Assembly (NCBI GenBank): GCA_963514005.1
Contig: OY740807.1
Location: 18,972,001-19,036,000 of the forward strand
Reading direction: 5' to 3'
Source of the DNA: Raja brachyura
Taxonomy: Eukaryota
DNA length: 64,000 nt
In this document: positions 3,501 to 33,500 of the stretch, one piece after another
Position numbering within the stretch: the first letter of the stretch is position 1
How the letters are laid out: each line of letters starts with the position of its first letter
Notes under the pieces: generated by a model
The model's database searches: none
What the model saw: the letters and a program-made list of their open reading frames with translations, nothing else
What the model was told of the DNA's origin: nothing
Position numbers and translations under genes: made by a program

Positions 3501-6500
3501 TCTCCACAGCTGGCATCTAATTCAAGTGTGAGGTGTTGCACTTTGGAAGGTCCAATATAAGGGGAAGTATAAAGTTAATAGCAAGACCCTTGACAGCATT
3601 ATGTATGGAGAAATCTTGAGGTCCAAATCCATAGCTCCCTGACAGTGGCAAAGCAAGTAGATAGAATGGTAAAGAAGGCATATGGTATGGTTGCATTTAT
3701 CGGTTGGAGCATTGAGGATTAGAGTCAGGAAGTCATGTTGCAGCTTCATAAAACTTTGGTTAGGTCGCATTTGGAGTACAATATGCAGTTCCGGTCTCCC
3801 CATTACAGTAAGGATGTGGAGGCATTGGAGGGGGCGCAGAAGAGATTTATCAGTATGCTGCCTGGATTAGATGGTATTAACGAAAAGGAGAGATTGGACA
3901 ACCTTGGATTATTTTCTCTGGAGTGTGGCAGATTATCATGTTACATGATAATAAAAATATATAAAATTACAAACGGGTAGATAATCCAATCCTTTCTCCC
4001 AGGGTTGATACGTCAAAGACAAGGGGGTATAGCGTTAGGGGGCAAAAGTTTAAACGAGATGTACGGGATAGGTTTTTGTTTTACACAGGGACTGATGAGT
4101 GCCTAGATGTGCTGCCAGGGATGGCGGTGGGCGTAGATAAGATGGTGGCATTTAAGAGACTTTTGTAAAGGCACTTGGATATGCAGGGAATGGATGGATA
4201 TGGATCATGTGCAGGAACAGATTAGATTAACATGGCATCATGTATAGCAGATATTGTGGGTCGAATGGCCTGATCCTGTACCATATTGTTTTATGTTCTA
4301 TTTGGCTCCAAGACTATCTAGTTCAACCAACTTAGAAACATAGCTGAAAGGGTTTGGTCTCAGAAACTTTGAACATAATCCAATTGAAAACAATTGAGTA
4401 GAACACACGCTGACCTGACGTTGGTTGCTGGTGCAGTGATCAGTTGTGGAAAGCATCTCCGCTGTAGATTCTGCTGTGGTATTAGTAATGGCCATCTCAC
4501 TTTCACTCGATGCATTGGAGAGTAACGAAAGTACCGCAGAGTTCTTTAGACCTGGGCCAAAATATAATCAACAATGGATGTTTCGAGCATTTGCCAGCTT
4601 TAAAGAATTGTGACAACGTAGGAATGTTACAACATTTTGAGATTTTAAAAATCAAGCCTGTAATTTATCCCATCAGATTAAAAATAACTTGATTTTATAC
4701 CTAATTCACTTTCATATCTTCAGTATTAAAAAAGTTATGGTCATTTTCATACTCGGAAATTACCATCTTGTTATGATCAATATTTTCATACTAAACATCT
4801 CACTAAAACTTTACTGTGGACGTTTTCAGATATTTAGTATGAAAATATTGATCATGGATAGACAATAACACAAAAAATAGATAATTTAGATGTTCTTATG
4901 ACATGATTGTGAAAAAAATAATGATTTTGATTATCTTGAGAGTGGACACTGCAGGATTTTGAACAAATGTCTGTGTAAAATGGCCCTTGCCTGCTGCAGT
5001 GAGAAAAAGTAAAATTTATGGGAATAAATTTTATTACCATAAATTCCCATTATACCCCCCCCCCAAACCAACAGCCTCCGGAAACACGCGCACAGGCAGA
5101 TCTGGAGTGCCACTCTCTCCAACTTCTACAGGTGTACAGTAGAGAGCTTGCTGACTGGTTGCATCGTGGATTGGTTCGGCAACTTGAGCGCCCTGGAGAG
5201 GAAAAGACTACAAAAAGTAGTAAACACTGCCCAGTCCATCATCGGCTCTGACCTTCCTTCCTTCGAGGGGATTTATCACAGTTGCTGCCTCAAAAAGGCT
5301 GGCTGCATCATCAAGGACCCACACCACCCTAGCCACACATTCATCTCCCTGCTACCTTCGGGTAGAAGGTACAGGAGCCTGAAGACTGCAACAACCTGGT
5401 TTAGGAATAGCTACTTCCCCACAGCCATCAGGCTATTAAACCTGGCTCGGAACTCTGAACATTAATATCCCTCCATCTGTTATTTGTACTTTATTAATTT
5501 ATTAAGTCATGGGTGTATTTATGTATATAATTGTAGTCAATGCCTTCTATGTTCTGTTGTGCTATGCAAATAAAGATTTTCATTGTCCTGTCAGGGACAC
5601 ATGACAATAAACTCTTTTGACTTTTGACTTTGACTTGATGGTAAGGTTTTGTAACAGCGCTGGACAATGCATAGGCAACGAGAGTAGAGCTGACTGGGTC
5701 ATTCACACTACTGTATGTAACAGCCCAACACAAGCAACAGAGATGAAAAACTAGTTCAAACAAGTATCCATCTGAGTAGAAACAAGGAACTGCAGATGCT
5801 GGTTTATAAAAAAAGTGCTGGTGTAATTCAGTAGGTCAAGCAGCATCCTTGGAGAACATGGATAGATGATGTCTGGACCCTTCTTCAGACTGATCAGACA
5901 TATCTGATGAATCTGATCACACAGATTCAATTAGTCTGAGGAAGGATTCCGATCTGAAACATCACTTATCCTGGTTATCCAGGTATACTGCCTGACCTGC
6001 TGAGCTACTCCAGCACTTTTTATTTACCTTTGTTTGAGTATTGATTGGGTAGACAAGCCTTTTGCCCACAGATTCCACGCTGACCATCGATCATCTGGTC
6101 ATGCCAGTTTAGTTTAGTGATACAGCACGGAAACAGACCCTTCGGCCCACCGAGTCCACGCAGACCAGTGATCCCCTCGTACACTAGCACTATCCTACAC
6201 GTTAGAGACAATTTACAATTTTACTAAAGCCAATTAACCTACAAACCTGCACGTCTTGGAGTGCGGGAGGAAACCAGAGTACCTGGAGAAAACCCACATG
6301 GTCACGGGAAGGACATACAAACTCCACACAGATCCCGGGTCTCTGGCGCTGTAAGAAAGCAACCACCACTGTGCAGCCCTTAATTCTATATTATCTGACT
6401 TTCACATCCACTCCCTACACATTTGGGGCAATTTATGGAGACTAATTAACTTACAAACCCGCACATCTCTGGGATGTAGGAGGAAAGCAGAGCATCCGGA

Positions 6501-9500
6501 GGAAACCCACTTGGTTACAGAAAGAACGTGCAAACTTCACACACATACAGCACCAGAGTCCAGGATCAAACCCAGGATTCGGGCGCTGTTAGGCCAAAGG
6601 AAAATCTTGAACGTATGTCTACAGTTTCGGAATAATGAAAAAGTGCGTTGTTTACTTTTTCCTTGATGGGCTTTGATTAGATATTCAGTGATGAGCTCTG
6701 TGCAGCGAGCTTCCAGTGCCTCAGCCTGAGATTGCACACAAGGCTCCAGATTCTCCTTGGTGGGTTTCTGCTCTGTAACGATGTCGGCCGTGTAGAGGGC
6801 CAGTGCGCTGAACAGCAGCCAGGTGTAGTTGTGGATGTATGGCTGGATGAGACGGTGACGGTCACTGATGCGAATTGTCACCATGGGGAACACCGTGATG
6901 CTGTGTGTAGGCAAGTGGCTGCAAGGAAATAAAAAGCTACAAATTAACGTGGAAAACAATACAGAGACAAGAGACTGCAGGTGCTGGAATCTTGAGCAAA
7001 AAAAAACTAACTGCTGGGTCAGACAGCATCTGTCGAGGGAAATGGACAGACAATATTTCCAGTTGAGACCCTTCTTCAGGAGGATCTGGACCCTTGTGTC
7101 TGACCCGAAACATCATCTGTCCATACCCCCCCCCCGAGATGCTGCCTGATACGTTAAGGTCCTACAGCAGTTTGCGCTTTGATAAGAAACAGTACATCTC
7201 CCCATCCAACTTATTAACAACTGACACAGGTAAAAAATCATTACAAAATAGTATGAATAAGGGCCAGAAAAGTTCCCCTGCAGCACCCTTCCTTGTCAGA
7301 TTAGTTTATTAGATTTATTTTGGTACAAGTGGAAATAATGAAGAATGATACAGACATTGGGTAGGGAACAACACACTTGAGATAATTCTCATTACTTAAG
7401 TAGTTTAGTCAGCTGGGTTCAATTATACACTAAACTTCAACAATACACTAAACAATTGACAGACGACTGATCACAATTGAAACAGGTACTCAAAAAGGTC
7501 AGCGGCAGCACCCAAAAGGTCAAAGGAGACAAGGACAGAATGTGCATACTGCTGAAGTGTTGCAAGCACAGTTCAAGGGCAGAGCTCTGCCAGGTGCACA
7601 CTCGTGGCCAGACAAACGCTGCTTTCATTTATTTATTTTCTCGAGACTGAGGGAGCCAAATAATTTATCAAATTTGCTGAAAGCTCACAGCAATGTCTTT
7701 GAAGTGGACACATCTGTTAATAACAGGGTGAACAGATGGCTGCACCATTTGAGGGAGTAAAAATAGCAATCCTGCAAATGAGTTACGCACGAGAGCTGCT
7801 GCCTCCTAATTTCAGCACCCAAGATATGATCCTACCTCCAGTGCTGTCAATGTGGAGGTCACACATCATCCGTGACCTCATTGGTGTTTTAGACCCACCA
7901 TAGTCTCTGTATATTACCCATAGTGAAGGTGGGTGCTATGATAATCAGGATGGAGGTACATAGAACACTACAACACAGGAACAGGGGCAGTGGCCAGCGA
8001 TCTCTACGCCAACCATGATGCCAATTTAAACAAATCTCATCTACCTGCACATGGTCCATATCCCTCTATTGCCTCTTTACATGCTTGTCTAAATGGCACT
8101 GAAGAGGTGAGTGTGAGAGAATAGAGTGAAGGGATAGGAATATGTGTGAAGTGGAATAGACATGACAGACCAAATGGCATCTGTGATCTAATTTTTAAAA
8201 AATGAGCTGTGAATTTTGCCGACTTCATTTTTGGGTCATCAACATTACAATTCTGAATTAAGAAGTAGCAATTCTAGTGCTGTATAGCACCACTGTCGGT
8301 TACCTGTCAGGGTATTTCTTTGCAGAATAGCACCCGTAGCAAAGGTCAAAGTCATCACAGACATTGCAATTGATCCTGCGGCCTATGATTAGCCCCTGGC
8401 AGTGATCACATGCGTACTCCATGTTCACCATCTTATGATAATCTTCATGATGTTCAGGCATCACTCCACCTAAAGGGAAACATCATCACGGTATAAACTG
8501 ACCCGATCATTTCATGGGATGGCATGCAAACAAAAGCTTTTCAACGTATCTTGGCACATTATAAACCTAAGGCTTCAGAACTTTGGTCTCAACAAGATAA
8601 TATTGGCAATGAAATATTGGCTAGCTAGATATTAACAATTCAATAGACAGGGCGAATTTCTGGGAACATTTAGAGGCTATTTTGCACAGAAGCAAACAGA
8701 TGTTATTCACATCATGCTCATCAAACCCACAGGTATCTTCTCACTTACTGCTAAAGATGAATTCCCGGGAACAATAATGATAATAATAGGATCAGCACTG
8801 AAAGGGCAGAGGTTTATTAATAATAACAGCACTGCTGTATTAGGAACTTGATGTAAACTCCTTCACTCTCCAGTTATGCAGGGAACCCAGCTGAAGCCTC
8901 CACCCCTTATTGACACCTCCATGCCACAAGTCAATATAACATCAGTGTGGCATGGCTCAGTGTGGAACAGGTAAGGAATCACAGTGAGAGAAGCAGTGAA
9001 GCCACTTGAGAGAGATATGGGGGTGTGTAGAAAGGAACTGCAGATGCAGATTTAAACAAAAGATAGACACAGAAAGCTGGAGTAATTCAGTGGAACAGGC
9101 AGCATCTCGAGAGAAGGAATGGGTGACGTTTTGGGTCGAGACCCTGAAGAAGGTTAATTAATTAACAGCCATTAATAGCAGCCTAGTAAAATAGAGGCAT
9201 TTGTACTTCACAGCACTTCAATTTTTTACCGAGAAAACATGTTTTGCAGAGATCCATGTCTGGACACTGGAGACAACGGTAACGATGCCAAGGTGCTATT
9301 TTGTGGCATCCGTCGCAGGATATCTCCACATTCAGTAGGTCACAGTAACGTGCAACAAACATGTGCATCTATCACATAAAAACAAATTGTTAATTACCAT
9401 TCCAGACGCTAAAACTCAAGTTATTTAATCAGAAACAGTGACAATCCCTAATGAATTAGTGGTCTGCAATTAACAGATACACTTGCTGATGACTTGTTTT

Positions 9501-12500: not shown

Positions 12501-15500
12501 TATGCACAGTATTTTCAACTAATTCAAATGTTCAGAGTTGGAAGGTGGAAAATGTATCCAGTAATCTCACCTACTTGACTTGTATATATGGCACGTGGGG
12601 AAGAACAGTTTTGTGCTGAAGGTGACAGATAAAGATGGAGGGCAGTTTTGAATTATTTTGACTTACAAAATTTGCACCAATTTTGAATTTCACAGCAATA
12701 GGAGACCAAGACGATATTGCAAAACTTGATGCAGATGATGAATGATATACTTTTACAATCATGGAAGAACACACGTATCCTAAACTGGGGCAAATGGAAC
12801 TAGATGAAGGGCAACCTTTAGTAAGGGTCAGGTGAAATAGGAATTGGTGTGAGAGGGGAGGTGAATACCAAATTAAAAGTGTTACATATGAATGTGCGAA
12901 GTATAAGAAATAAAGTGGATGAGCTTGAGGCTCAGTTAGAGTTTGGTAGGCATAATGTTGTGAGAATTACAGAGACATGGCTGCAAGAGGATCGGAGCTC
13001 GGAACTGAATATAAAATTATTAAGGGATTGGACATGCTAGATGCAGGAAACATGTTCCCGATGTTGGGGGAGTCCAGAACCGGGGACACAGTTTAAGAAT
13101 AAGGGATAAGCCATTTAGAACCGAGACGAGGAAACACTTTTTCACCCAGAGAGTTGTGAATTTGTGGAATTCTCTGCCTCAGAAGGCAGTGGAGGCCGAT
13201 TGACTGGATGCATTCAAAAGAGAGTTAGATAGAGCTCTTAGGGCTATGGGGAGAAGGCAGGGACGAGGTACTGATTGTGGATGATCCGCCATGATCACAT
13301 TGAATGGTGGTGCTGGCTCGAAGGGCCGAATGGCCTACTCCTGCACCTATTTTCTATGTTTCTATGCAATGAGAACCAAGGCCCAAAGTGGCAATCCTTA
13401 GTGAAACAAAGAATCTTGGCAGACAAGAATACCAAGCACAAGGGAGAGAATCGTTCTGCTGGAAGGCTTATTTTTAAAAGGGATATGATAGCCAGCAGTG
13501 TAACTCCATGCATTGAATGGGAATCCCTCGAGAAAGCAGGAAATACAATCATGAGGTCAAAAGATAACTGCTGAGCAACACAAATCACATCTGCGACAGG
13601 ATAACATCAACCAGCTTTTCGATAGTGATGAAAGTTTAACTGGCAAAAAATACCTTTGAGATTCAGACAGTTTAAAGTTGTATTTTAGGACAGCATGGAC
13701 AAATAAAATACTTGTAAAGAATATTCCAAAGTTTTATTATTTTGCATATCAAACCCAAATTAGAAGATGCTTCCAATCATTTGTACCCATATTCAAAGTA
13801 GAATGGATCAAATAATAATTTCAAATTGGATATTTCAGCTCCTGCTGCTGTTTTTTCCCTCTTATAACTGGCAAGTTAATGACTTGGTCAACTTTGCAGG
13901 AAGAATTCCTAAACGGGAATCATAATGTGTTACACTCGCCCAGTTAGATTATATCCACAGAACTCCATATTGGATTTCAATTGAGAACTTTAAGATGATG
14001 ATTCAATGCCCAACTGCAGGTGGGAAGCTGTTACTCAGGTAACATCTGAAGGAGTGTTAAAGAAGGAACTGCAGATGCTGGAAAATCGAGGGTACACAAA
14101 ATGCTGGAGAAACTCAGCGGGTGCAGCAGCATCTATGGAGCGAAGGAGATAGGCAATGTTTCAGGCCAAAACCTTCCTCTGAAGAAGGGTTTTGGCCTGA
14201 AACGTTGCCCATCTACTTCGCTCCATAGATGCTGCTGCACCCACTGAGTTTTTCCAGCATTTTGTAACATCTGAAGGAGGTTCTGTGCATCTGGACCACT
14301 ATTATTCTCAGGCAACATTGCCATTAATCAGCTAATTCTCTTTCATCGTTTGTGGAATCAGCTCCAAACAAAATAACACAAATTCACCAGGACGACATCC
14401 TACTGAGTATTTCACACAACTGAAGCATCCTAAGCACAGTCATATGGCATTAGTTAATGCCAATATTTTAAGCATTTTGATATTTTGCTTTTTGTGCAAA
14501 AAAAAACTATTTTTGTTTTGTTAATGGGAATGTTGGCTGTAAAATTATTCCACCATTTTACTGGCCTTTGTCACCTTGGGTGTTAAATTCAAAATTTCTA
14601 CTCATGAAAAGAAAATGTTAATGATCTGATTAAGTTGCTTAAAAAAAAATTAAAGCTAAACTTCACAAATAAATATATGGATAAATCCTCTGCACTCTCC
14701 CTGATCCCAATCATTTTCTTTATTCTTAAAATAATACAGATAACTTTCAAATCTATTTTCATATAAATAATACATAAGGCCTTTGATGATCACACGTTAT
14801 CTATTTAATGCTGGAAAGGAGTGTGGGGGTTGGGGGTGGGGGGGGCGGGGAGGAGTACTCAAGTACATCAGGATGATAAACCATGGACATTTTTATTTTG
14901 GTCATTAATCATATAATTGTAATAATGTTTGTTGGAAATACTGGCATCATTAACAATCAAATGCCATCTCCCACACATTCTCATATTTCATGGGATACCA
15001 GAGTAAATGCATTTACTTCTTAAAATACTTCAGAGAACATTCAGAATCAAAACAAGATGATATTATCAGAAAAGGATATTTCTATCTGCAGAATAGATAT
15101 CTCAAGCATAAAAGTGAAGATGCTGGGTAATAAAAGGGAATGCACACCAATTCAGCATATTTACTTTGGCAGAAATTAATAAAAGCTGCATATAAATAGA
15201 CCAAATATAACAGAATCAGCAGGTTCAGACCCCAGCCTGTGTTATCAAGATTTGTCACTAGCCTTAGCAACAATAAATCTACCAGAGAAGAAAGGGGAAA
15301 ATTCAAACAGGATTCCTGCCGCTGACTACATTAAAGATCTGCGTTACTAACATCAAGAGCTCCAACTCAGCCTCCGCCACTAGAGCTCCCTGGAAAATCA
15401 GGAAAAGTTAAGGATAGCACTGAATCAGCTATGATGCCCCACAGTTGAATGCCCTACAAATATTTACTATCATAGCTCACATTTAAAGATGGCCTTCTAA

Positions 15501-18500
15501 GCTAGGTAGCAGAGCTTTTTAATTCTATAAATCAACCTATTGCAATTAAAAGTGTTTCTTCTTAGCTAATCAATATTTGAATACACATCAAATTACTTTG
15601 CAAATTCATCATCTCAATTTCCTTCAAAAAACTGTATAAAACTAGTTTGCAAAGGTGTGGCACGCTGCATGGTCTTTGAGGGGTCTTGACAATAGGTGAT
15701 TGCATTCTAGACTACACACGGGCATGAAAAATACACCCATGAGATCTCCCACACAAAGGATGGAGAAATATCTCAGGGCCACAATGATGAAAAATAACCT
15801 CAATCTAGTTTTCTGCAGGGTCTTGATAGAACTTTGCAAATTTTCATAATTCCCCTAAATTTTATTTATATGCATGAATGCTTTGCTGAAGTGGCCCCAT
15901 CTTCAGGAAGCACTACAGCAATACATGGCAAGGCAAAATAGATGAAACACATTGATATTTGGCTATAGGAGCAAGCTTCACCATTCCATTCTATCATAAT
16001 TAATTATACAATGCAATTTCCTCTCCCTGGTTCCCTTCTATTCATATCCTTTCATAACAATCATCTACTAATTTTAATATTTGGTTCACAAGGCCAGACT
16101 CAACATCACGTTAGAGACAAGTGTTTGCTACATCCCCTCGCCTTTGTTTGAGGGGATGCACCCCACATCATCCCAAACACCTGGACTTCCTCCTCCAGGA
16201 AAATGGTTTCATTATACTCTTACCTGTTTCTTTCTGAAAGGCTGTAACAAAATGACCCACAAAGTGCAAAGCAATCCTCTGGATGCATTTGAGATTCTAC
16301 TAAAATTTACTAGGTAAGTCACATTAGGTTGACATTTGCTCTACATGAGAACATTCTACAGATAGCCAGTACAAATAACTCACTACTAAATAGTAATACA
16401 ATCATCAAGCTAAGTAGAAGATCACAACCAAAGCTCAGAATTATTTGCTGCAAATCACGATTATCAAGGTTCACAAAGTTTAGCTCATAGGTTCAAGGAG
16501 CAGAATTAGGTCATTCGGCCCACCAAGTCTACTTTGCCCGTTGTCGTTCCATACCTGATCAATTCCTTCTGACAGGTTAACATTTCCTGCAGAAAGAGAA
16601 TGCAGGAGAACTGGAATAGATGAGGCTGTCCGAGTGATTGCAGGCATTCTCTAACTGCATGGAGAACATTAATGATATTCTTGGCCTGGGCCTTCCGCAA
16701 AGATAGAACCTGCAAAACACTGCAAAAGTTTTTTTTTAAATGTTAAAGCAAAGTAATAAGAGCAATCGAGGCAAAAACAAATAAAACCACAACTGACACT
16801 TTGGTAAATACACTTGCCACTAATACGCAGTACTTGATGTCTTTTAACTTATATGCAAAATAACTCTCATTAGAAGTATCTGCCAATTTGTTGAAATCGA
16901 ACTTCAAGTTTTTTCGCACAAAGGGTTGAATGTAGTTCAAGAACAGTGTCTTCCAGCAGATATTAAAAATAATGGTGCATATCCTATTTAAGTGTCCGAA
17001 TTCAAAGAATTATATAATATCACGTGGGTCTCCCCCCAGATATCTTTATTGCAGGGATCAGTTCAAGCCCCTTGTGTGAGCCCCTCAAATTGCCCCGTCC
17101 CTTCCCACTTTGGAGCAAACAGCAGAGAGCAGGCATGAATCACTTCATACTGGTCCACTGTGCATTCACATCTATATTGCTCAAAGAAAAACACTTTGAT
17201 TCAAAGTTTAAAGACCCCATAAGGATGAAAAACCCAGTGCTTTTATTCAGTTTTGTGGTCCAGACCAGTCAAGACTAGATAGACACAAAATGCTGGAGTA
17301 AATCAGCAGGACAGGCAGCATCTCTGGATAGAAGGAATGAGTGACATTTTGGGTCGAGACCCTCCTTCAGACTTGAGTCTCGACCATAAACATCACCCAT
17401 TCCTTCTATCCAGCAATGCTGCGTATCTCACCGAGTTACTCCAGCATTATGTGTCTATCTTTGGTGTAAACCAGCATCTGCAGTTCCCTCCTACACACTA
17501 GTCAAGACTAGTATTCAATGCCCACCCCCAAGCGACCTTTGAGAAGGTAGCGACGAACTGCCTTTGTGAACTGCTACGGTCCTCTTGTAAAGATACTGTT
17601 AAGGATAAGAGATAATGAGGGACCAGTGATATAGTTCATACAATAGGATGGTGGGAGTCTTGACGGGGAACCTGTAGGTGATGATGCTTCCATGTATCTA
17701 CTGCTCTTTCTTCCAAGTGATGGACACGGCATACTTGGGGGCTGAGGGGGAGTGCGGTTGTAGCAGCCACTGCAAGTAACAGCAGCATATTTTGTAGATA
17801 GTACACTGTGCAGCCACAGTGTACTGGTGATGGAGGGGCGTACATTTAAAATGGTTAATCAACAAGGCATGATTCTGGGAATATGACAATGCCAACCTAT
17901 TACTTTTCTTAACTGGGGGGGGGGGGGTGTTGGGTAGAATACAAGGTGTTATTCTTCTAATGACCCTCGTTTCCTGTATACTTCCCTCTCTTCTCCTTTC
18001 AATACATCTCTGGCCCTGCCCACGCAAACAAAGACTCACAAACCATGCTACCAGTGTAGGCAGTAATACTGGGGAGGGGGTGGTCATCTGAATGTGCTGC
18101 AATCCATTCGATTTTTGCTGGGTTTCTCTGCGCTCCCCAAAAAAAAGTGACTCGAGGCTCTCCAGATGATTATTCTTCCATTTGGATCAGTCACGAACCA
18201 GGGATTCCTACAATCTGGTGAGGGCAATCCTCCGAATCAAAGCCCTCAGCATCCTGCTCCAACTCACCGTGCTAAGAAGTGGCTTTAATGATCAAATTGA
18301 GTAATTCACAAAGACAGGTATTAATGGCATTTAGCTTATGGCCAAATCAACCTTGCAACTCAGAAGGCTGTGCATCTTTGGAAGTTTCCGTACAAGACAA
18401 CAGTAAAGGCGGTGTAATTAAATGACTGTGACAGATAGTTTTGATCTGCAGGGGAAAATCGAGGTTTATAGGGAACGAGCAAAAAAAAGGTCACGGCCAA

Positions 18501-21500
18501 GATCATGAATGGCAAAGCATGCTCCAGGGGCCCTATGCCAACTTCTGCTCCCATTGCTAAAGCTCTTACATTGAAATCTGCACTGAGCTTTGAAACCAAT
18601 TTCTTGCCTTCAGCATCTAGCTTGCATATAGAAACAGGCTTGGTCATATTCAATCTCCAGGAACAAACTGCTATTTACTAATCCTCTTCCTTCTGTTAGG
18701 TACTACTGCTTCAGATAGGAGACTTGGAATGAGGTCCTACGGCAGTCTGGGTCGGTAAATTAAAATTTGATTGAAAGAAAACCAGTTTCTTTCCATTTCC
18801 CTGCCCTCACCCGCCGCATTGCAAACTTGCACCTCCTCTAAATGCACGTCTTCAGACAATTATTCAAGTAGTTTCCTTTGGTCTGAAGACCAAACCAGCT
18901 TACCTTTCAGATGAAATATTGGTATCCTTCATAAACTCCAAAATGCTCTTCAAAATTGGATATTTGTCTTGGATTGGGACAATTTTAAACTCTTCCATGG
19001 ACTTGAGTGAGAGTAATCTAAGTCGGCCTTTATTAAATGAGCCCTTGGGTTTGGAACTAAAAGGAGAGTGATGGTCAATATAAGGAGATACGGGATTTTC
19101 ACTGGACGTGCTGCTGAATGAAGAAGCTGGGCTTTCAGCAGGATCAAGGTTATCGTTCAATGCTGTGGCGGCAGGGATTGATTGCTGGGCTTTTTCATCC
19201 ACTGTGTTTTGCGACTGTACAATTGGTTCATGTGATGCGGTAGAGTGGACTGCAGAAATAAGCTCTGCCGGCAGATTGGCCGACTTAAGCAAACCATCGT
19301 CTTGCTCAGGCAAAGTATCCATTCTCTTCTCTTCAGATGAAGAATCAACATTTTTTGATGGAAATGGTGTAAAGTTTAATAGCAAAAGGCTCTTCCCAAT
19401 CCAGTTTTCGTCTAGAAAATATCAAAAAGTTACTTCGACAAAGTTACAAATTGTAAGTAAATATAATATTCATTCTATTAATATGATTGGTATAAATGCT
19501 TTAATAGCTGCCTTTGCAGCCACATCAGATAACTATTCTAAAATGCCACTCTTGTGCATTAATAGGTTCCTTATTATTTAGACCACCTTTAAGTAGCCGG
19601 GCATCATTTACAAGAGAACACTAAATGATTAAGCAAAAGGCAGAAATCAAAATTCTACTTAAAATAAAACTACTCGAAAAATAACTTGAAATTTGAAATG
19701 AAAATCAAATAAAAATAAAAATCAAATACACTCGGTACACTCAGCAGGCCTGGTACACTCCAGAGCATCTCTGGAGACAGAAACAGTTAAAATATTTCAG
19801 GTTAAAGACTGTTCATCAGAACTGGGACAGAGGGAAAAAAGTCAGTTTTAATTTGCAGAATGGAAAATAAACAGGGGTGCTGAGCAGAATTAGGTTAAAA
19901 CCTTAGTTCACGTTCAACTGGAGTACAGAAACAACGATGGACATTTGCATTTGTTATCTGATTTATTCACTGACTCTCAAGGCTGCTTTAAAATCAAATA
20001 GAGACTATTATACAAGAGATGATTAAAAGTGAAATGTTCATTTTCTCCAAGAAAATGGTGCAAATTTATGGAGTAATCGTCAAAAAAATGGAAAAGTAGA
20101 TTAATGATCAGATATCACTTCTATTTGAAATCTGACCACTACCTATGAATCAGTAGACTGATGAACTGCAAGCTAGCAGCACTTATTAACAACCCCATGG
20201 TCACTTTCTCAGGAATTCTGGCAGGAATCCAGCACGAAGATCAAGAGTGTTTTATTGTCATATGTCCCAGATCAAACAATGAAATTCTTACTTGCAGCAG
20301 CACAACAGAATGTGTAAACATAGTACACTGTAAACAACATAATAAACGAGAGAGAGAGAAAAAAAGAAAAAAAAGTATATTGTAGTTAAGAGCTTTGAGG
20401 TTGGAGTGTTTAATAGCCTGATGGCTGTAGGGAAATAGTTGTTCCTGAACCTGGGCGTTACACTTTTCAGGCTCCCATACCTTCTTCCCGATGGCAGGGG
20501 TGAAATGAGTGTGTGGCCAGAATGGTGTGGATCTCTGATGATGGTGGCTGCCTTTGAAGCAGCGACTTGTAGGAGGTGATGGCATTCAAGCCCTGCCACA
20601 GTTGCCGAACATCCGCCAATACCCGGGGGCTTTACAAGGTGGTAGATGGGGTAGGCATAAATAGCTGTTTTCATTTCTAGCCCTATTGGTGCTTACCATA
20701 TTTTAGAAACTAGCACATCCAATTAAAGGAGGTATATACCAACCTCCAATCCAGTGCATGTGAACCTCATTTAAAGGTAGAGAACCACAAGTTAGGGAAA
20801 TAGCTGGTGCTCAACCCCTGCCTCCGACACAATTAAAAAAAACTCCTTACAATGAGCACAACATGGATGAAAGATCTCAACAAATAGGAATAAGGAGCTT
20901 TAACTGTAGGCAAGGAATTAAGCCTACAATACTTATTATCGGATTTGTTTATTCAGGCGTTTTCATTGCAATACGGTATGAAATCATGTGATTGCAACAG
21001 AGTCCATCTATGCCAATGTCTATAGGAGTGGGAATATTGGCTAAATCTTACTCACTGATATTTTCTGGGCTCATCTTGTCATCGTCTTGCGCTTCTTCTT
21101 TATCACTGATCATCATCACATATTTCTGTTTACGTTCCATCTTATTAAGGGGAAGGATGGGGTTGAAGGAAAGAAAATTGAGTCCACTTGGTATCATTCA
21201 AACACAGAATCCTGAACATCAAGAGTGCAATGGAAATATCTGTGTAGTTACCCTATATTATATTAATTATCAATCTTTACAACTATCAATCTTTACAACC
21301 ATAATGATACTTGCTCTAATTTTTAAATCTTAATTACCCTATTCCATTTTTCAAAGTAACAAATGTACAAACTAGAAACAGGGCCATCAAGTGGCACCTA
21401 TTATGCAACAAACTGCGAGCCAATACTCAGCTCCAAGCTTAGTCACAACCCTGGCATGGACACAAGAACCAAATTGAGTTGAGCATAACTGCTCATAGTA

Positions 21501-24500: not shown

Positions 24501-27500
24501 ATTAATGCACAAGTGCCAAATTATTGCACTTCAGACAAACAGATGGGCACTGTGCAAATTTCACTACAGCCACTGAAAATTAAATAGATCTAATAAAGAA
24601 TTAGGATCCTTTGTAAAATCATTGCTGCTTTGCGTTGCTGAATAAAATGAGTAAATCCAAAACGTGATATAGCTAAAGTGGAAAGGGCTTCACTCAATCA
24701 AATGTGCAGTGTTTTGTCAAAAGAGGGACAGGAAATATTTAACTGATGGAATATCAGGAGGTTTCTTCCTGTCAAGAGTACTGACTGCCTCCAGATACAG
24801 CCCATAAGTGGGAGGATAAAAGCTATAATATCCAAGCACAGGATAATACAACGTATAACACATCCACTAATGAACCAAGTTCTGAAATCAATGATGAAAG
24901 TCGTCCTGTTCTCTTACACTAAAGGTTGTGGCAATTGCAAATCAAAAGGTGTTGGTGCCCTCTACAGGGTTCTTGTCAAATTGAAAGCAATTTTGTGTCA
25001 TCTTAACTAATAAATCTTTCTAGAGAAACAACTCTAAATCAGAAAATGCGTTGATCGGATTACCTGTTTATAAATTCAAATTTCAAGCTTCTTGGCAGGA
25101 TAGTGGGCACTGTGCAAGCTCTGGAGGAGCAGGGCAATTTAACGCAAAATGGTGAAAAGTCCGGAACAAGTATTGATGTGGTAGATTCTGCACAACCTCA
25201 ACCTACCATCACAATTTGTACTTACGCTATTTTTGTTTTTATTATTGTGACTAATTACAATTAATACACTCAAAGAGGCTATAATTGCAAGCATTTCCCG
25301 TAACGTCTTTATACTGCCAAATCCGCAATCTAATTTAATAAAGTTAAAAAAGAAAAAATGTTAACAGACTACTTTCCAAAGAAGACCGATTTACCATATG
25401 TTCTCAGTGCACTGTGAAGATCAGGACTGTGGTACATCATGGCAGCAAATACAGCATTCACAGCTTGGTCAACTTTTGACCCAAGGCCAATTCCACTAAG
25501 TACTTCCCGCTTTGCCGAATGTTTCTTGCAAAGGCTCACAAGTTTCTTCATTAAGTCAGTCTGAGCATCAGGGACATCATCTTGCATAGAATCCCAGAGA
25601 GCAACCTGGACCAGGAACTTCTGAACATCATTCTTGCTCTGCGACCAAGTGCAAAGAGTTATTTCAATATAATGAAAACAAACATTTCTTTCCAGATAGG
25701 ACAACAAACTGCTTCTAAATTTGTTTCATGAGCCTTCAAAAATAATGTCCAGCTTCTTTTTTCCACTATCAACCCAGATTTAATCACTTCTGAAAGCTAG
25801 CTTCTTTCAGCTTTGGATGATAGCTAAAATAAAACAATTCCTCCAGTTTGATTACCTCGAAAAGATTAACCACACATTTATCTCCTCCCGCCTAGATTAC
25901 TGCAACTCCCTTTACACAGGCATCAGCGAATCTTCCCTGTCCCACCTACAACTGGTCCAAAACGCCGCAGCGAGACTCCCGATGGGCACCCGAGAAAGGG
26001 ACCACATCACCCCGATCCTGGCCTCTCTCCACTGGCTCCCTGTGCGGTTCCGAATAAATTTCAAGACCCTCCTCTTTGTCTACAAAGCCCTCAATGGGCT
26101 TGCACCCACCTACATTAAAAGTCTTCTCGCCCACTACACCACCTCCAGGTCCCTCAGATCAGCCGACTTGGGGTTGCTGAATGTCCCACAGTCTAGGCAT
26201 GAGCTCAGGGGCGACCGCGTCTTTGCGGTTGCAGCTCCTAGACTGTGGAACAGCATCCCATCCCCATCAGAACTGCCCCCTCCATCGACTGCTTTAAGTC
26301 TAGACTAAAAACTTATCTGTTCTCCCAAGCTTTTCCTGACGTCCTCTGAGCGAGGGCTATTTGTATATATGTATGTAGCCTGCTTCTGTATACTATTCTT
26401 ATAACAAATGTAAAGCACTTTGGTCGACGAGAGTTGTTTTTTAAATGTGCTATATAAATAAATGTGACTCGACTTGACTTCTCCACCGTCACTTCATGAC
26501 ATCTTTAAGATATGCAGGAATTCATAAAATTGTTCATCAAAATGGAGACCATGCATTTTTCCACCCTTTCTTCCCCACGGGCTTATTACATTCTGTTCCA
26601 CCCTATGAAATTTTAAACCTGGTCGATACAAGACTTGGCACAGTTTCCTCGCCTCAGATATCAAATTTCAAAGCTGTAAGATACTCATGTTCAGAAAAAC
26701 ATTGATCACCAAGTCCTCCCTAACAACAACCCAATTCCAGGGTTCTCTAATGTGCTTCTACCCACATTTATACTTTAAGATATACTTCAATCTCAAAGTA
26801 GCTTTTACATGACTGAAATGACTCTAGGTCCACAAATGATCCTCTCTGTGACGATGTATTATTTTCCTGTCATTGTTAAGCAGATTCTTAAAGAAATGCT
26901 GTAAACCCCCATCTTAACGTCATTATATTCTTTTTGTTTTCAGCACATCTATTATTCTAACAGTCAGGCAGGTGCAGCGGAGAAATAAGTCTTACAGCTC
27001 CACAAATGTACGTGTCGACCATTAAGCACTCTTCTGCCAATACAACTGTAACTCATTTTATTCTCTCCACATTCTCGTCAGCTAACCCTAGCTTCTACCA
27101 CTCATCTACACACTAGGGCCAACTGACCTACCAGCTCATGTTTTGGGCGTTCACACCTAGATGGTCACAGGGAAAACATACAAAATCCACATCGACGCAC
27201 TGGAGGTCAGGATTGAACACAGGTCGCTGAAGTCAAGAGACAGCACCTCCAGTTAAGCACTCAACTGGGCCACTCGCACTGTATTCCCAATTCGACTACG
27301 GTTTGCACCCCAAACATGCAGATCATCCCAAATCAAATCCCACTATCAGGTCTAACTAAACCGAATAAATCTGGTAACGTGATCTCCCAGCCTGTATGTT
27401 TTGTGTGTACATGTCCATGCTACAAGTTAGGTTTTAATGTCTTCAAGGTAATTCAAAGTGAGGTGACAAAAACAATTAAAAACAATAACGTTTTAGAAAT

Positions 27501-30500
27501 AATGAATCATCAACAGCTTTAGTTACATGAGCTCACTAATATTCTGAAGGATTGCGGATAAAATTAAGGTCACCTTTTCCTTATTTTCATCAAGTGCTTA
27601 ATTTATCTCTGAAGCTGACCAAATGAGACCAGCCATAAAAATTACAATTGAAGTTACCAGCTCAGCTTCTGCCGATGCGCCGTCCATTGTTCCAGCTGAG
27701 CATGGATTTATTCCTGCACAGGTTCCATGCCTTAAGATGGGTTTCCAGAGCCGACATTCCACTACAGAAGTAACCTTCTCTGCCGGTAACTCAGGAGGAG
27801 GGAACAGCCCTTCACAGAAAAAAATAAATGAACAAAATGTCTTTATTAACATTTCAATGGGAAGTGACTCAACTATGCAAAGCATGATCATTGTATCTCA
27901 CAGTGCTTTACAGCCAATTATTCAATATTGTGATACTATAACAGAGATAAATATTAGCTCGGGGGCTAGATGCGGGGACACAAGAGAATGCAGAAGCTGG
28001 AACCTTGAGTGGAAAATAAACTGGAACTCAGTGGGCCAGAGAGCATCTGTGGAGGGAAATCGGTGGCCGATTCCAATTGTGGAGCCTTCTTCACATGTGG
28101 GGGTCATGTTATTCCTCATGTGTGGTGAATCTGTGGAATTCTTTGCCACAGAAGTCTGTGGAGACCAAGTCAGTGGATATTTTAAAGGCAGAGATAGATA
28201 GATTCTTGTGCAAGAAGGAACTGCAGATGCTGGTTTAAACCGAAGATAGACACAAAACGCTGGAGTAACTCAGTGGGACAGGCAGCATCTCTGGAGGGAA
28301 GGAATGGGTGAAGTTTCGGGTCGAGACACGATTCTTGATTCGTACGGGTGTCAGAGGTTATGGGGAAAAGGCAGGAGAATGGGACTAGGAGGGAGAGATA
28401 GATCAACCATGATTGAATGGCTCAGACTTGATCGGATGAAAGGCCTAATTCTACTCCTATTCCATATGACCTTAAATATGCCATGAGAACTTGCAACCTA
28501 TCGAGGGTACAGACTGAACTACGTCCTCCAATGGATGGCACAAAGCCACCTTCTGATGGTATAGAGGCATCTTCTGATGGTGCAGAGCCATTTTTTGATG
28601 ATCCAGAGCCATCTCCAGTTCTACTTGACGTATGGCCCTAGGTTATGCTCACATTTGTGGAGAGAGTGTGAACTCACAGCTTTGGCTCAGAAGGTGGAGC
28701 TCCACCTCTGAGTTAAGCATAAAATTGTACTACTTTGTCATAGCCAAATAACCCATTTCCTACATACCTCAGGGTGAAACTAGATCAGCAGATGACCTAC
28801 AAGCAACACCTTGAAGCTCTCTGTGCTAAAGTCTCGGCGCGGAACAACCTCCTGCGTTGCTTGGCTGGATCATCAAGGGGCGCCAGGACATCTACTCACT
28901 GAACCAGTGCTCTTGCACCCGTGTACAGCGCCACTGAGTACGCCGCCCCAGCGCTTATACTAGCAAGCTAGACGCCATCCTCAACGACACCATGCGGCTC
29001 ATCACTGGCTGCCTACGCTCTACTCCGACGGATCTTCTGCCGGTGCTCGCATGTATCGCACCCGCCAAGCTTCGCAGGGAGTACTTCACTCACAGGCTGG
29101 TGTGCAAGGCTCCATCGGACGCCAAACATCCTTTGCACAAGCTCGCCCAGGACACACAGCAACTGGCACCTCAACGCCTGTCATCTCATCGCCCCTTCTA
29201 CCGTCACGCAGCGACCCTCTGTGGCTCCGGTTTCAACACACTAGGAGCATGGAGAACCAGCTGGGAACAGACTTCACGACCTCCGCAATTCACTGTTGCA
29301 CCAAATGCCACAGCCCCACCCAGCTCGGACCTGCCCCGCAAAGAGTGGGTCGCCCTGAACCGGCTCCGTACAGGAGTCGGCCGGTTCAACGCCAACATGC
29401 ATGGCTGGGAGCTGCGTTCATCAGCAGTCTGTGTGTGTGGAGCGGACCAGCAAACAGCGCAGCACGTCATTTTGGACTGCACTGTCCTCCGCCCCCCTGG
29501 TGGAGGGGTAGACCTCATGGCCCTCGGCAACAGCATATTGAACTGGCTAGAGCACCTGGAGAGCATTACATAACCTCTGCTGCCTTAAACGCAAGAAGAA
29601 GATAGCCAAATATTACCAATGTCTTACATGTCATCAACTAAATTGTGACAAATCAAATTAAACTGCAGATGGCGGAAATCTAAAATAAAAACAGAAAAGG
29701 CTAGAAACACTCAGCAGATCAGGCTGCACTTGAGCGGAGTCAAGAGTTAACGTTTTAGAGATACAACGTGGAAACAGACCCTTCAGCCCACCAAGTCCGC
29801 GCCGACCAACGATCCATATACACTAGTTCATCCTATACACGAGGGACAATTTACATCTACTTCATGCATGTCTTTGGAATGTGGGAAGAAAACCAAAGCT
29901 CCTGGAGAAAACCCACACGGTCACTGGGAGAGTGCACAAACTCCGTACAGACAGTACCCATAGTCATGACCTAACCCAGGTCTCTGGCTGTGAGCAACTC
30001 TGCCGCTGTGCCGCCCTATGGATCGTTTAAGTCGTAGACATTCTGCCTCTATTAACCACAGTTAGATCTTAAAAAAAGTCACTTTCAATAAGGACAAATT
30101 AAAACATACAAGGTTTCTTAAATGATGCACATAGGTGGCCAAATAACAGGATTGATATAACAATAGGTGTTGGTAAACGTTTATGAATGTGCATAAATTG
30201 TTCTTAAATATGTTTAACTGTGAAATTGATAGACTTACCACAGGTTGAGTTCAAAGACAGCGCATGCGAGGCAAGACAACCCATTAGTCGAGACACAAGC
30301 AGCTGTAGGTCTGCAACCCAAGGTACTCGCACATCTGGCAGACCATATGCTTTCACCATGAACTTGTATCCCCACTCATTGTTACAGTTGTCAGAGTGGA
30401 AGAGAAACTGCAGCCTCGGGCCCGATTTAAATGTCAATGACTGCAAAAACAAAGATGTAAGCAAGGTATTACACAGCTATTCATTATTGCCATCACCAAT

Positions 30501-33500
30501 GGTTTGTTTTCATTAGGGAAGACATATTGATCCTTAGGTGCGTAAGAAAGAACTGCAGATGCTGGTTTAAATCGAAGGTAGACACAAAATGCTGGAGTAA
30601 CTCAGCGGGACAGGCAACCTCTCTGGAGAAGGAATGGGTGACGTTTCGGGTCACCATTCCATCTCTCCAGAGAAGCTGCCTGTCCCGCTGAGTTACTCCA
30701 GCATTTAGTGTCTATCTATTGATCCTTAGAAGTGAGCATGTTTGCATTCTAATATGGACAAGAAGAACAAAAAGAAATGATGAATTAATTTGAGCAAATA
30801 TTTGAATTCAGCTGGGTCATCTCATCTGATAAATCACCAGTGTATCACACAGTAGTTTACTGACCACATTGTATACGGGGTTTAAATATCTTGTGTGTAA
30901 TATACCTAAAGTAAAAATCTAATAGTGCTGATTGAAATAGGCAATGAACGAAAAAAAATTGTTACCAAATAACTTACCGTTGGCCACTTCTCTGTCCCAA
31001 CCTTTCCATCATAACGCACTTTCACTCCTCTGGAGTCTGTAAACTCCAAGTAATCGTACCTGGCAAAGAAAATGGCCAATTTATTTGGAGCTGAATGGTC
31101 ATCTAATATTTTATATGCTGGTTAGTATTTCATAATTTCCCAAACACTCAAATTATAATAGTATCAAAGTAACTAATCTCACACATAGCAAGCCCTACAT
31201 CACTCGATCTTCCACACATCAGTGCATATTGAGGTAGGACCATAGTGCAGATGAACACGTGGCTTGAGGCAGTGAGGGTGCGAGTTTTAGATTCTCGGGG
31301 TACAGATTAGTTCCAGCGATGGCGATATTTGTCCAGACCACAGGGGTCATCACAATATGGCTGGGCACATCATCTTCACAGGCCAGACCGCTAGTGCAGG
31401 TTAAGACCATTGCATTGGGTTTGGGAAGGGAAGCGATGCTGAGCACAGGTTCACAAGGAGAAAATTGGAAATGGAAGATAGGAAATTAGTGAGAGTATAG
31501 AAACCAGAATTAACAAAGGTTGGAAAAAAGATAAAACATAGATAAAAGACAAAAGATAAACTGACCAAGAGACCAAGGTTCTTAATCAATTCTTACCACT
31601 GCCATCACTAAAGTAGGGGTAATGTTTAAATTGTAATGAAGAAGATTGAGTGTGAAACATTAAATGAAATAACATAACGAGGAAGTGTAAGGGATTTATC
31701 ATCTTTAACAGTGGCTAAATCACCAGGCTCAGACAAAGTGGACCCAATGCTATTAAAGGGGGAGAGATTGCAAGAACTCTGAATACAAATCATTCATTTC
31801 TCCCTGGTTATCCACCGGGTGGCGCCGTCAGCGATGGCTGCCTTTTCATCTTTTTTGTGTGTTTTAAAAGTATGTGTTAATGTTCTCTGGTTTGTTTTAT
31901 GTGGGGGGTGGGGGTGCGTGTTGGGGGAAACTTTTTCTCAATCTCTTACCTTGCCGGAGATACGATTGTTTTCCGGATCGTATCTCCAGTCGGTCTGCGG
32001 CCTAACATCATGGAGCTGGCGGTCTTGCTCGAGACTGACTTTGGGCCCCACCGCGGGGCCATGGACTTACCATTGGAGCCTGCGATCCCTTGCCTGGGAT
32101 TTACGCTCCAACCGCGGCCTGCAGATTTCACTATCGAGGAGCTCGCAGTCTTGGGTAGAGACTGATGTCGGGAAGCTCCAAAGTCGCAGGAGGTTCGACC
32201 AGCCCCGACTCGGGGTCCGATCACCCGGCACAGAGGAGCTGAAGTCTCCCCGACGCGGGAGCTTGATCCCCCCCCCGACGCGGAGGACCCAGACCGCCGA
32301 CTACGGGAGCCAAGATCATTACGTTAACTGAAGGTTCGAGGCCCCCCCGACTGCGGGAAAACAAAGAAGGGAAGAGATTGAACTTTCTTTTCGCCTTCCA
32401 TCACAGTGAGGAATGTGGAGTCGTCGCTGTGGTGGATGTTTATGTTAAAATGTATTTTGTGTGTCTTGTTGCTTTTTATTGGTATGACTGCATGACAAAT
32501 CAAATTCCTCGTATGTTGCAAAAAATACTTGGCTAATAAAGTATGATTATAGGAATTATAGCATGGATAAAAGCATATTATTATAGGTCAGTAAGTATAA
32601 CTTTTCTCAGCCACAAACTATTATATTCCATTCTAGGAAATGGTGTGAACCTTCATATAGAACGGCACAGATTAATCAAGGCTATTCAGCATGGAGTTGC
32701 ATGGGAACGCAATGCCCGAATAACTTGATTAAATACTTTGAGGCCAGTTCAAGGCTGGTCAATGAGAGTGAGGCTGGTCAGAAAATAAAAACTCCATGGA
32801 ATCCAAGGGAAATATTGGCTCAAAGACTGGGTCAGTGGCAAAATGCCACTCAAGTGGTGATTCAAACTCAGTGTTGACAAATTTCCCTCTGCAGTGCAAT
32901 AATTTCCAGAATCTACATGAATCTGCTCAACCTCCATTCCCGCCTCAGTCAGAAATGCAGTAAACAAAACAAAACCACACAAGCCATTGTCAAGTTATTC
33001 ACTGGAACATAAAAGGAATGAACAATAATCTTTACGTCCACCATTATGGGTAGTGTTAGGACAGTGATCAATTTACTGAACAAGTATTCTGGAAACCTGG
33101 ACTAACAAACCAGGGGCCACGCTACAAATCTCAAGTCCAACAGTTGTGGGATTTTAATTCAGTTGACAATCTGGAACTTGGAAAAAAACGTCTTAGTAAT
33201 GATGGCCACAAATTGACCCAATTATTGTAAAAATGGCCACTGATATCCTGAAGGGAACCAAATTACATTTATAAAACTCCAGACCATCCCATTTGGTTGA
33301 CTTTTAAATGCCCTGTAAAATGAGTACGAAGCCATTGAGGTGCAAATAAGGGGAACAATTCAAAGTGTTTTTCAAAGCCTCCTTTGAAAGTGTAACATCC
33401 CTACTGAGTTATAATAATTCTTGATTCATGACCAGCTCAAAACGAAGTCGAAGCATCTCTAGTCCCTTAGACAGAAGCAAGCAAAGTCCAGTAAAAATGG

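Follow-up and report, generated by a model that had tools for sequence, protein, structure and literature searches.

Insertions of EN+ Penelope-like elements (PLEs) have been described to carry an inverted, 5′-truncated copy of the pLTR, a tail of 30–40 bp on one side only, and a target-site duplication (PMC8557442; Pen2a of A. vaga, PMC3846280). According to PMC8557442, the way in which PLEs produce such inverted, tailed insertions is still undefined; PMC11167929, in its available part, answers the question only partly and in vitro. In that study of PAc, a Poseidon element of Anolis carolinensis, two internal start sites of reverse transcription span the tail, both target strands are cut and extended, hammerhead cleavage is dispensable in vitro, and the part available gives no start-site difference between the strands. 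The metazoan PLE hammerheads are of a minimal type I with CUGANGA, an extra base between positions 9 and 10.1, a G10.1–C11.1 pair, GAAA and a palindromic 15.2–16.2; they occur mostly as dispersed single motifs, and in Schistosoma hammerhead pairs lie on opposite strands 100–700 bp apart (PMC4209133). The non-LTR retrozymes are ORF-less, carry a type I hammerhead and are related to pLTRs (PMC7229834, bioRxiv 10.64898/2026.07.22.740005).

The inserts described here are members of this EN+ PLE kind, for which an inverted pLTR, a one-sided tail, a target-site duplication, an initiator-like motif and a minimal hammerhead have already been published. They lie in a window of 64,000 nucleotides from Raja brachyura (C29:18972001–19036000 of the 2.70-Gb assembly). 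Positions in the terminal sequence are given on the sense strand of the element; +1 is the base after GTC, the predicted hammerhead cut, and the C of CTGAAGA is at −27. Five inserts, A to E, each consist of one long-ended and one short-ended arm lying head to head with their 5′ ends facing, and each is flanked by direct repeats of 13–16 bp; a preliminary description of this DNA had reported both features, and both are borne out. The duplication scores are 16, 12, 13, 11 and 10, respectively; one of 60 random window positions reached 10.

Insert A is bounded by an exact 16-bp duplication (14039–14054 and 14264–14279). Its long-ended, tail-bearing arm (14055–14182, minus strand) runs from −28 to about +101 and its short-ended arm (14178–14263, plus strand) from −28 to about +58, with a 5-nt overlap. 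The insert is of the type of the young lineage treated below, the long arm falling in a subfamily near the young autonomous family. Insert B (17264–17511) has a 15-bp duplication with one mismatch (17264–17278 and 17497–17511), a short-ended arm on the minus strand (17279–17373, 5′ end at −30) and a long-ended arm on the plus strand (17377–17497, −17). Similarly, in insert C (30525–30729) an exact 13-bp duplication (30525–30537 and 30717–30729) encloses a long-ended minus-strand arm (30538–30652, −12) and a short-ended plus-strand arm (30650–30716, −2). In insert D (44001–44258; 14 bp, one mismatch, 44001–44014 and 44245–44258), the short-ended minus-strand arm from 44015 has its 5′ end at about +6 and is separated by filler from the long-ended plus-strand arm (44111–44244, −34). 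Insert E (57784–57948; 13 bp, one mismatch, 57784–57796 and 57936–57948) joins a long-ended minus-strand arm (57797–57921, −27) to a short-ended stub whose 5′ end is at about +53; this inverted arm, rightly described as short, measures 14 nt (57922–57935). The junction is different in every insert.

Three older copies had also been proposed. The inverted pair at 41954–42155 does have a duplication (41954–41966 and 42143–42155, 13 bp, one mismatch, score 10), but the scores of the old long-plus-short inverted pair at 5784–6030 (score 5) and of the diverged inverted pair at 6960–7180 (score 4, ends approximate) are within chance. The inserts listed in the preliminary description are real, yet the list was too short, since the window holds 25 arms, the majority of them single. 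A single long-ended arm lies at 9024–9145 (minus strand), and other single arms lie at 1901, 11498, 21641, 28207, 47812, 48790 and 55291. The single short-ended arm at 48621–48711 (minus strand, −25 to +65) has its own 16-bp duplication and sits in the pLTR of another copy. A longer, short-ended copy at 45897–46284 (minus strand) extends upstream to −323, into the 3′ UTR and the endonuclease-coding end. On the plus strand, the copy at 60413–60785 starts at −24 and passes through the tail into the start codon region, after which a second terminus follows (−39 to +71); it holds the leader and about 110 nt of the ORF start, and either an internal deletion or a pair of separate insertions may account for it.

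For an unbiased sample, 120 ten-kb stretches were placed at round coordinates, of which two were absent; the remaining 118 contained 433 terminal arms, or 3.67 per 10 kb (s.e.m. 0.28), which gives about 0.85–1.14 million arms genome-wide; the arms make up 4.4% of the sampled bases. With the window added, the set comprises 457 arms. Their 3′ ends are bimodal, 245 being short, 180 long and 32 other, and only 5 of the 457 lie between +77 and +87. The short end ranges over about +62 to +68 and the long end over about +99 to +104, and the 35 nt between the two sites are the tail extension that had been noticed on one arm. Neighbouring arms are arranged head to head in 84 cases, tail to tail in 9 and in tandem in 11; with 298 single arms against these 84 pairs, palindromes are the minority. 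Long and short ends are combined in 50 of the head-to-head pairs, an excess over independent choice among the 65 classifiable pairs (P = 2.7e-6); 13 short-plus-short and 2 long-plus-long pairs stand as counter-evidence to the coupling rule, and 19 pairs are unclassifiable. In the young lineage, 20 of 23 pairs are long plus short, one is short plus short and two are unclassifiable. All five multi-kb inverted pairs, which were read by eye together with their duplications (L225, L228, L229, L230 and L232), are likewise long plus short, with duplications of 13–16 bp.

In the first half of the sample, a score of at least 8 was reached by 22 of 44 pairs and by 0–1 in five swapped controls. A duplication was detectable in no more than 38 of the 247 single arms that are older and in 38 of the 98 that are young. 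The length varies from 8 to 18 bp and is mostly 11–17 bp. The junctions between arms are nearly all distinct, with 79 different keys in 84 pairs and 22 in 23 young pairs, which agrees with the proposal that each was formed independently at insertion. The 23 young junctions comprise 6 with an overlap of 1–4 nt, 4 blunt ones and 13 with filler. In 25 of the 50 long-plus-short pairs it is the short arm whose 5′ end lies further out by more than 5 nt, in 12 it is the long arm, and in 13 the two end within 5 nt of each other; the corresponding numbers for 20 young pairs are 9, 3 and 8.

The arm is no unit of its own but the terminus (pLTR end/5′ leader) of a Neptune-type PLE. Genomic copies of it run upstream into a GIY-YIG coding end and RT frames, and the suggested Penelope origin was right. 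The young element is 3,965 bp long, its copies are about 96–99% identical, and an intact RT/GIY-YIG frame of 1,191 aa is present in locus L214. In a search for long elements with an N-terminal piece as query, about 35 loci with open frames of at least 1,000 aa were counted by eye among the 150 scored of 3,714 candidates; 20 stretches, picked for long frames or paired matches, revealed the young element. Pfam places RVT_1 at 675–843 (E 4.7e-4) and GIY-YIG at 1095–1128 (E 1.7e-3) of the 1,191-aa frame, both below the curated cut-off, and gives only weak RVT_1/GIY-YIG matches on partial older frames. The frame contains the motifs DKG, YIDD and YIGET. Protein relatives number 942 at E ≤ 1e-20, with PF00078 in most of those listed, and a PDB sequence search found no relative. 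A Cys-rich linker between RT and EN (CNRKRCYTC at 1058) suggests the Neptune-type assignment, although such a Zn-finger-like linker, the mark of Neptune, is shared by Nematis (PMC8557442, PMC3846280). The ORF at L214:2205–5777 is about 350 aa longer than its relatives of 830–950 aa, and a Pro/Ala-rich repetitive stretch precedes the RT.

In a real tandem junction (L221), a TATA-like motif lies at −61, an initiator-like CCAGTCT with its A at −30, the hammerhead at −27 to 0, the short end at +66, the long end at +101 and the ATG at +136. The promoter-like motifs were recognised by the initiator consensus and the usual spacing from a TATA element. The pLTR organisation with partial tandems is present in L219, L224, L225 and L231 and in an array of 3,965-bp units (L221 and L222). 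This array (C18:46359500–46379499) contains at least four head-to-tail young units, with an open frame of 1,033 aa in each. Loci L228, L229 and L230 are perfect inverted pairs of the young element with arms of about 2.5–3.5 kb that are 96–99% identical.

A single ORF with RT and with GIY-YIG at its C-terminal end is attached to the terminus, and a one-sided 35-nt tail, an inverted 5′-truncated copy and a target-site duplication are all present, as in EN+ PLEs. The head-to-head terminal copy with its tail on one end, the hammerhead in the pLTR, the TATA/Inr-like motifs and the overlap of the pLTR with the ORF start region are shared with the EN+ PLE insertions on record (PMC8557442, PMC3846280). 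Unlike the A. vaga examples in the available part of PMC3846280, however, both arms here are usually about 95–135 nt and the duplications are mostly 11–17 bp instead of 8–10, and a copy number of about a million arms sets the family apart from the insertions of both papers. The resemblance to PAc is that two internal start sites would delimit the tail downstream of the hammerhead. The linker here is of the Neptune type, though, and 35 nt separate the long site from the start codon downstream of it, whereas in PAc the codon is inside the hammerhead (PMC11167929). The coupling of long and short ends within one insertion and the sharp 5′ boundary described below are found here and do not appear in the main text of PMC11167929. 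In a literature search to which Repbase, Dfam and subscription papers were external, long-plus-short coupling, a 5′ wall and twin priming by PLEs were not found described; the element family may well be catalogued already.

The preliminary description had the inserts carry hammerhead cores of the minimal type I consensus. The consensus does appear to be kept, as the core, an extra A, G10.1–C11.1 and the ACGT palindrome recur in all six subfamily clusters (213 arms), but the core motif is complete in only 88 of the 213 arms, and among the five inserts only the predicted core of insert A (14179–14206, plus strand; CTGAAGA, stem II with G–U pairs, GAAA, GTT triplet) looks complete. Insert B has no complete core, insert C has none and is without the CTGA turn, insert D is without G10.1, and insert E is without the ACGT palindrome and one stem II pair. 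Judged by its letters, the motif fits the minimal PLE hammerhead of PMC4209133, with the core consensus, an unpaired base after position 9 and a palindromic stem III. Helix I has 2 bp, as in D. virilis, compared with 4–5 bp in Schistosoma (PMC4209133), and helix II has 4–5 bp. Between clusters, the helices differ by wobble only (U–A to U–G), and C–G or A–U swaps occur in 5–8 arms. The predicted folds were no better than those of shuffled sequences (z from −1.5 to +0.9). Unconstrained folding gives no hammerhead for monomer or dimer, the constrained dimer reaching −12.7 against −26.6 kcal/mol when free. The Rfam scan recommended earlier returned no hammerhead among 15 matches at E ≤ 1, hairpin families appearing only below the gathering score. 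A tail-to-core pairing predicted in the young leader was dropped (z −1.49; absent in two other copies).

The 5′ ends of the arms seldom fall at the predicted ribozyme cut. Whole-genome counts of exact patterns of the young lineage, unequal in degeneracy and uncorrected for mutation or indels, gave 56,976 arms for the anchor at +15 to +42, 49,427 keeping +1 to +6, 50,952 keeping −5 to 0 (CpG decay allowed), 36,641 keeping −27 to −22, 23,227 keeping −30 to −25, 13,515 keeping −33 to −28 and 10,714 keeping −39 to −34. No drop in copy number is seen across the cut among these arms. Down to −27, the loss amounts to 0.015 per base; from −27 to −33 it is about ten times faster, at 0.15–0.18, and beyond this it is 0.039. 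About 41% of the young arms end within the six bases from −27 to −33. In the unbiased sample, a start at +1 is seen in 4 of 385 arms, of which 3 are among the 217 single and 1 among the 168 paired ones. These results do not support a ribozyme-trimmed template, one of the two origins first considered for the inserts. The drop from −27 to −30 is not an artefact, because all six subfamily clusters share those bases; a pile-up at −32 is partly one, of sister subfamilies with other upstream sequence (13 of 129 arms in the unbiased sample, about 2 of 51 in the young). A small 5′-end peak at +10 to +15 was also traced to sister subfamilies.

Among single arms bounded by duplications, 17 of 21 start at −33 to −25, the range over which the boundary is spread. 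In the young loci L234–L323, which come from the first 6.2 Mb of C1 with six overlapping or duplicate loci removed, the mode is −30; these were selected by filters on the 5′-end region and their histogram is therefore not unbiased. In copies that read on into the ORF, the start is at −30, −31 and −31 (L214, L236 and L310) and at −24 (window 60413). Among 11 long-ORF loci with a leader, however, only one starts at −30 (L214); four start inside the leader (−11, +7, +14 and +53), and six reach beyond it on the upstream side, being partial or full tandems. Run-off at an RNA 5′ end, probably at the initiator-like motif 27–33 nt upstream of the cut, is the likelier cause of these arm ends. Between duplication and arm, the extra base nearest the arm is G in 7 of the 13 young arms that start at −33 to −27 (P = 0.024); the base before −30 is G in 10 of 25 cases (P = 0.11). 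In L1, a cap-G signature is reportedly left when a G is added by reverse transcription of the RNA cap; the extra G here gives a slight hint of the same kind, that a capped RNA ended at the arm start.

We infer that the palindrome probably consists of two cDNAs primed from both cut target strands at insertion, from two start sites, which run off at the likely RNA start. The arm sequence is the pLTR end/5′ leader of the autonomous 3,965-bp element with its RT, Cys linker and GIY-YIG frame. To judge from the duplications, and from PMC11167929 in its available part, the endonuclease would make a staggered cut 11–17 bp apart. Each target 3′ end would then prime internal reverse transcription, as a rule with the short site used by one end and the long site by the other. 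Where priming occurs near the RNA 5′ end, the cDNA would run to the first base of the RNA, giving arms of 95–135 nt; this base is likely the A at −30, which belongs to the initiator-like motif 31 nt below the TATA-like motif. The cDNA ends may be joined by end-joining with a 0–4-nt overlap or short filler. Alternatively, only one strand would be extended, which would yield a single arm, the commoner outcome. By the same explanation, the hammerhead would be an inherited part of the leader, and its predicted cut probably does not set the arm ends. Twin priming in L1 also produces inversion with a target-site duplication by priming from both target strands; there the segments are consecutive parts of one RNA, whereas the two arms here would be copies of a single stretch, begun at two fixed sites. 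Both strands would be cut and extended as in PAc, for which the available part of PMC11167929 gives no reads ending at the cut and no need for cleavage. Against the coupling of long and short ends stands the biochemical result of that paper, which, as far as its available part shows, saw equal start sites on both strands. There is about an even chance that an asymmetric RT–endonuclease dimer, with a short-site and a long-site subunit, primes both strands, most events using the 5′ leader and running off the capped RNA. If so, one model would account for why the pLTR is inverted, why the tail is on one side only and why partial tandems are needed, and the million stubs would preserve in the genome a trace of how PLEs transpose and where their transcription starts.

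Other explanations have to be weighed. By the same chemistry, most stubs could be copied in trans from short RNAs made by the pLTR promoter of truncated copies, and not from the leader of full-length mRNA, forming a loose SINE-like pool. The 10,714 young arms that keep the sequence to −39 may thereby keep the promoter, and trans action of pLTRs is on record for A. vaga (PMC3846280). Tail-less templates of this kind would be expected from the excess of short ends, both among young single arms (71 short-ended against 25 long-ended) and among pairs (13 short plus short against 2 long plus long). However, a stub starting at −30 would lose the TATA-like motif and could not found a lineage, and the young stubs are 94–100% identical to the autonomous terminus, with the same allele pattern at +14. 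We regard this supply of templates as unlikely, though it has the best claim after the explanation above.

The wall at −27 to −33 could instead be a point of processing or stalling, such as a 3′ splice site (CAG|T at −29/−28), a branch point or a protein-bound hammerhead. The sequence upstream of the wall is pyrimidine-rich with CTGAC..CAG, and in D. virilis Penelope the 5′ end of helix I marks where the intron stops (PMC4209133). Nevertheless, the AG is mostly kept by the arms, whose starts in the selected sample have a local mode at −30/−29; of six duplication-bounded arms at −28, five adjoin the duplication directly, without an upstream exon, and the flanks upstream of the arms are heterogeneous. 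A structural stop of reverse transcription is moreover expected 3′ of a stem, which counts against stalling. Such an origin of the wall is improbable.

A third possibility, that one cDNA snaps back on the local hammerhead palindrome and copies itself, is very improbable. Some junctions are centred on the CAGTCTG quasi-palindrome, the key −32/−32 recurs in 3 pairs, and the +14 allele is the same in both arms of 13 of 14 young pairs. Yet a simple fold-back of one cDNA is excluded because either arm can reach further 5′, and the short arm, which reaches further in 25 of 50 pairs, contradicts snap-back as a general route; short ends are also found alone and on long copies, and 13 of 23 young junctions carry filler with only 4 blunt.

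The preliminary description had considered a retrozyme-like family. For such a family, or one like a MITE, mobile as a unit and ending where the ribozyme cuts, speak the many copies, the hammerhead motif, the inverted repeats at the termini and the duplications, and non-LTR retrozymes have been proposed as pLTR derivatives (bioRxiv 10.64898/2026.07.22.740005). It can practically be set aside, since junctions that are nearly all different fit neither a MITE nor a retrozyme, the core is complete in so few arms, there is no step at the cut, the arms are inverted or single (84 and 298) where retrozymes are head-to-tail monomers with canonical ribozymes and circular RNA (PMC7229834, in its available part), tandem neighbours number only 11 and no tandem monomers bounded by the cut were found, no single internal junction is common to the pairs, the duplication has no fixed length (8–18 bp), and the same terminus and long-plus-short rule occur on autonomous arms of 3–4 kb.

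The family makes up about 4% of the genome, and palindromes of PLE termini are prone to be mis-annotated as MITEs, miRNA hairpins or retrozymes. With 56,976 near-identical young arms and copies with intact ORFs, it is a recently active family and a ready test system, for which sharp, countable predictions can be made: long-plus-short coupling, a 5′ wall and no step at the ribozyme cut.

Some minor observations concern targets. A young short-ended stub with a 14-bp duplication (L232:1628–1732) lies within the pLTR of another young copy, and palindromic stubs lie in or near older long copies in L178 and L173; the three are possible cases of self-targeting. The young stubs in L282, L283, L287, L290, L291, L299, L301 and L307 share flanks, all of them having gone into one part of another abundant repeat; this hints that targets may be preferred. 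Within the window, a second kind of palindromic element, unrelated to the PLE terminus, is present twice (52354–52822 and 53481–53731); it has long terminal inverted repeats and contains a hairpin. A 173-aa stop-to-stop frame at 18900–19421 (minus strand) reads like a host exon and has no Pfam match. Two frames on the plus strand (25784–26308 and 28938–29573), which have no convincing Pfam match, look by eye like 3′ parts of LINE ORF2, to judge from their motifs.
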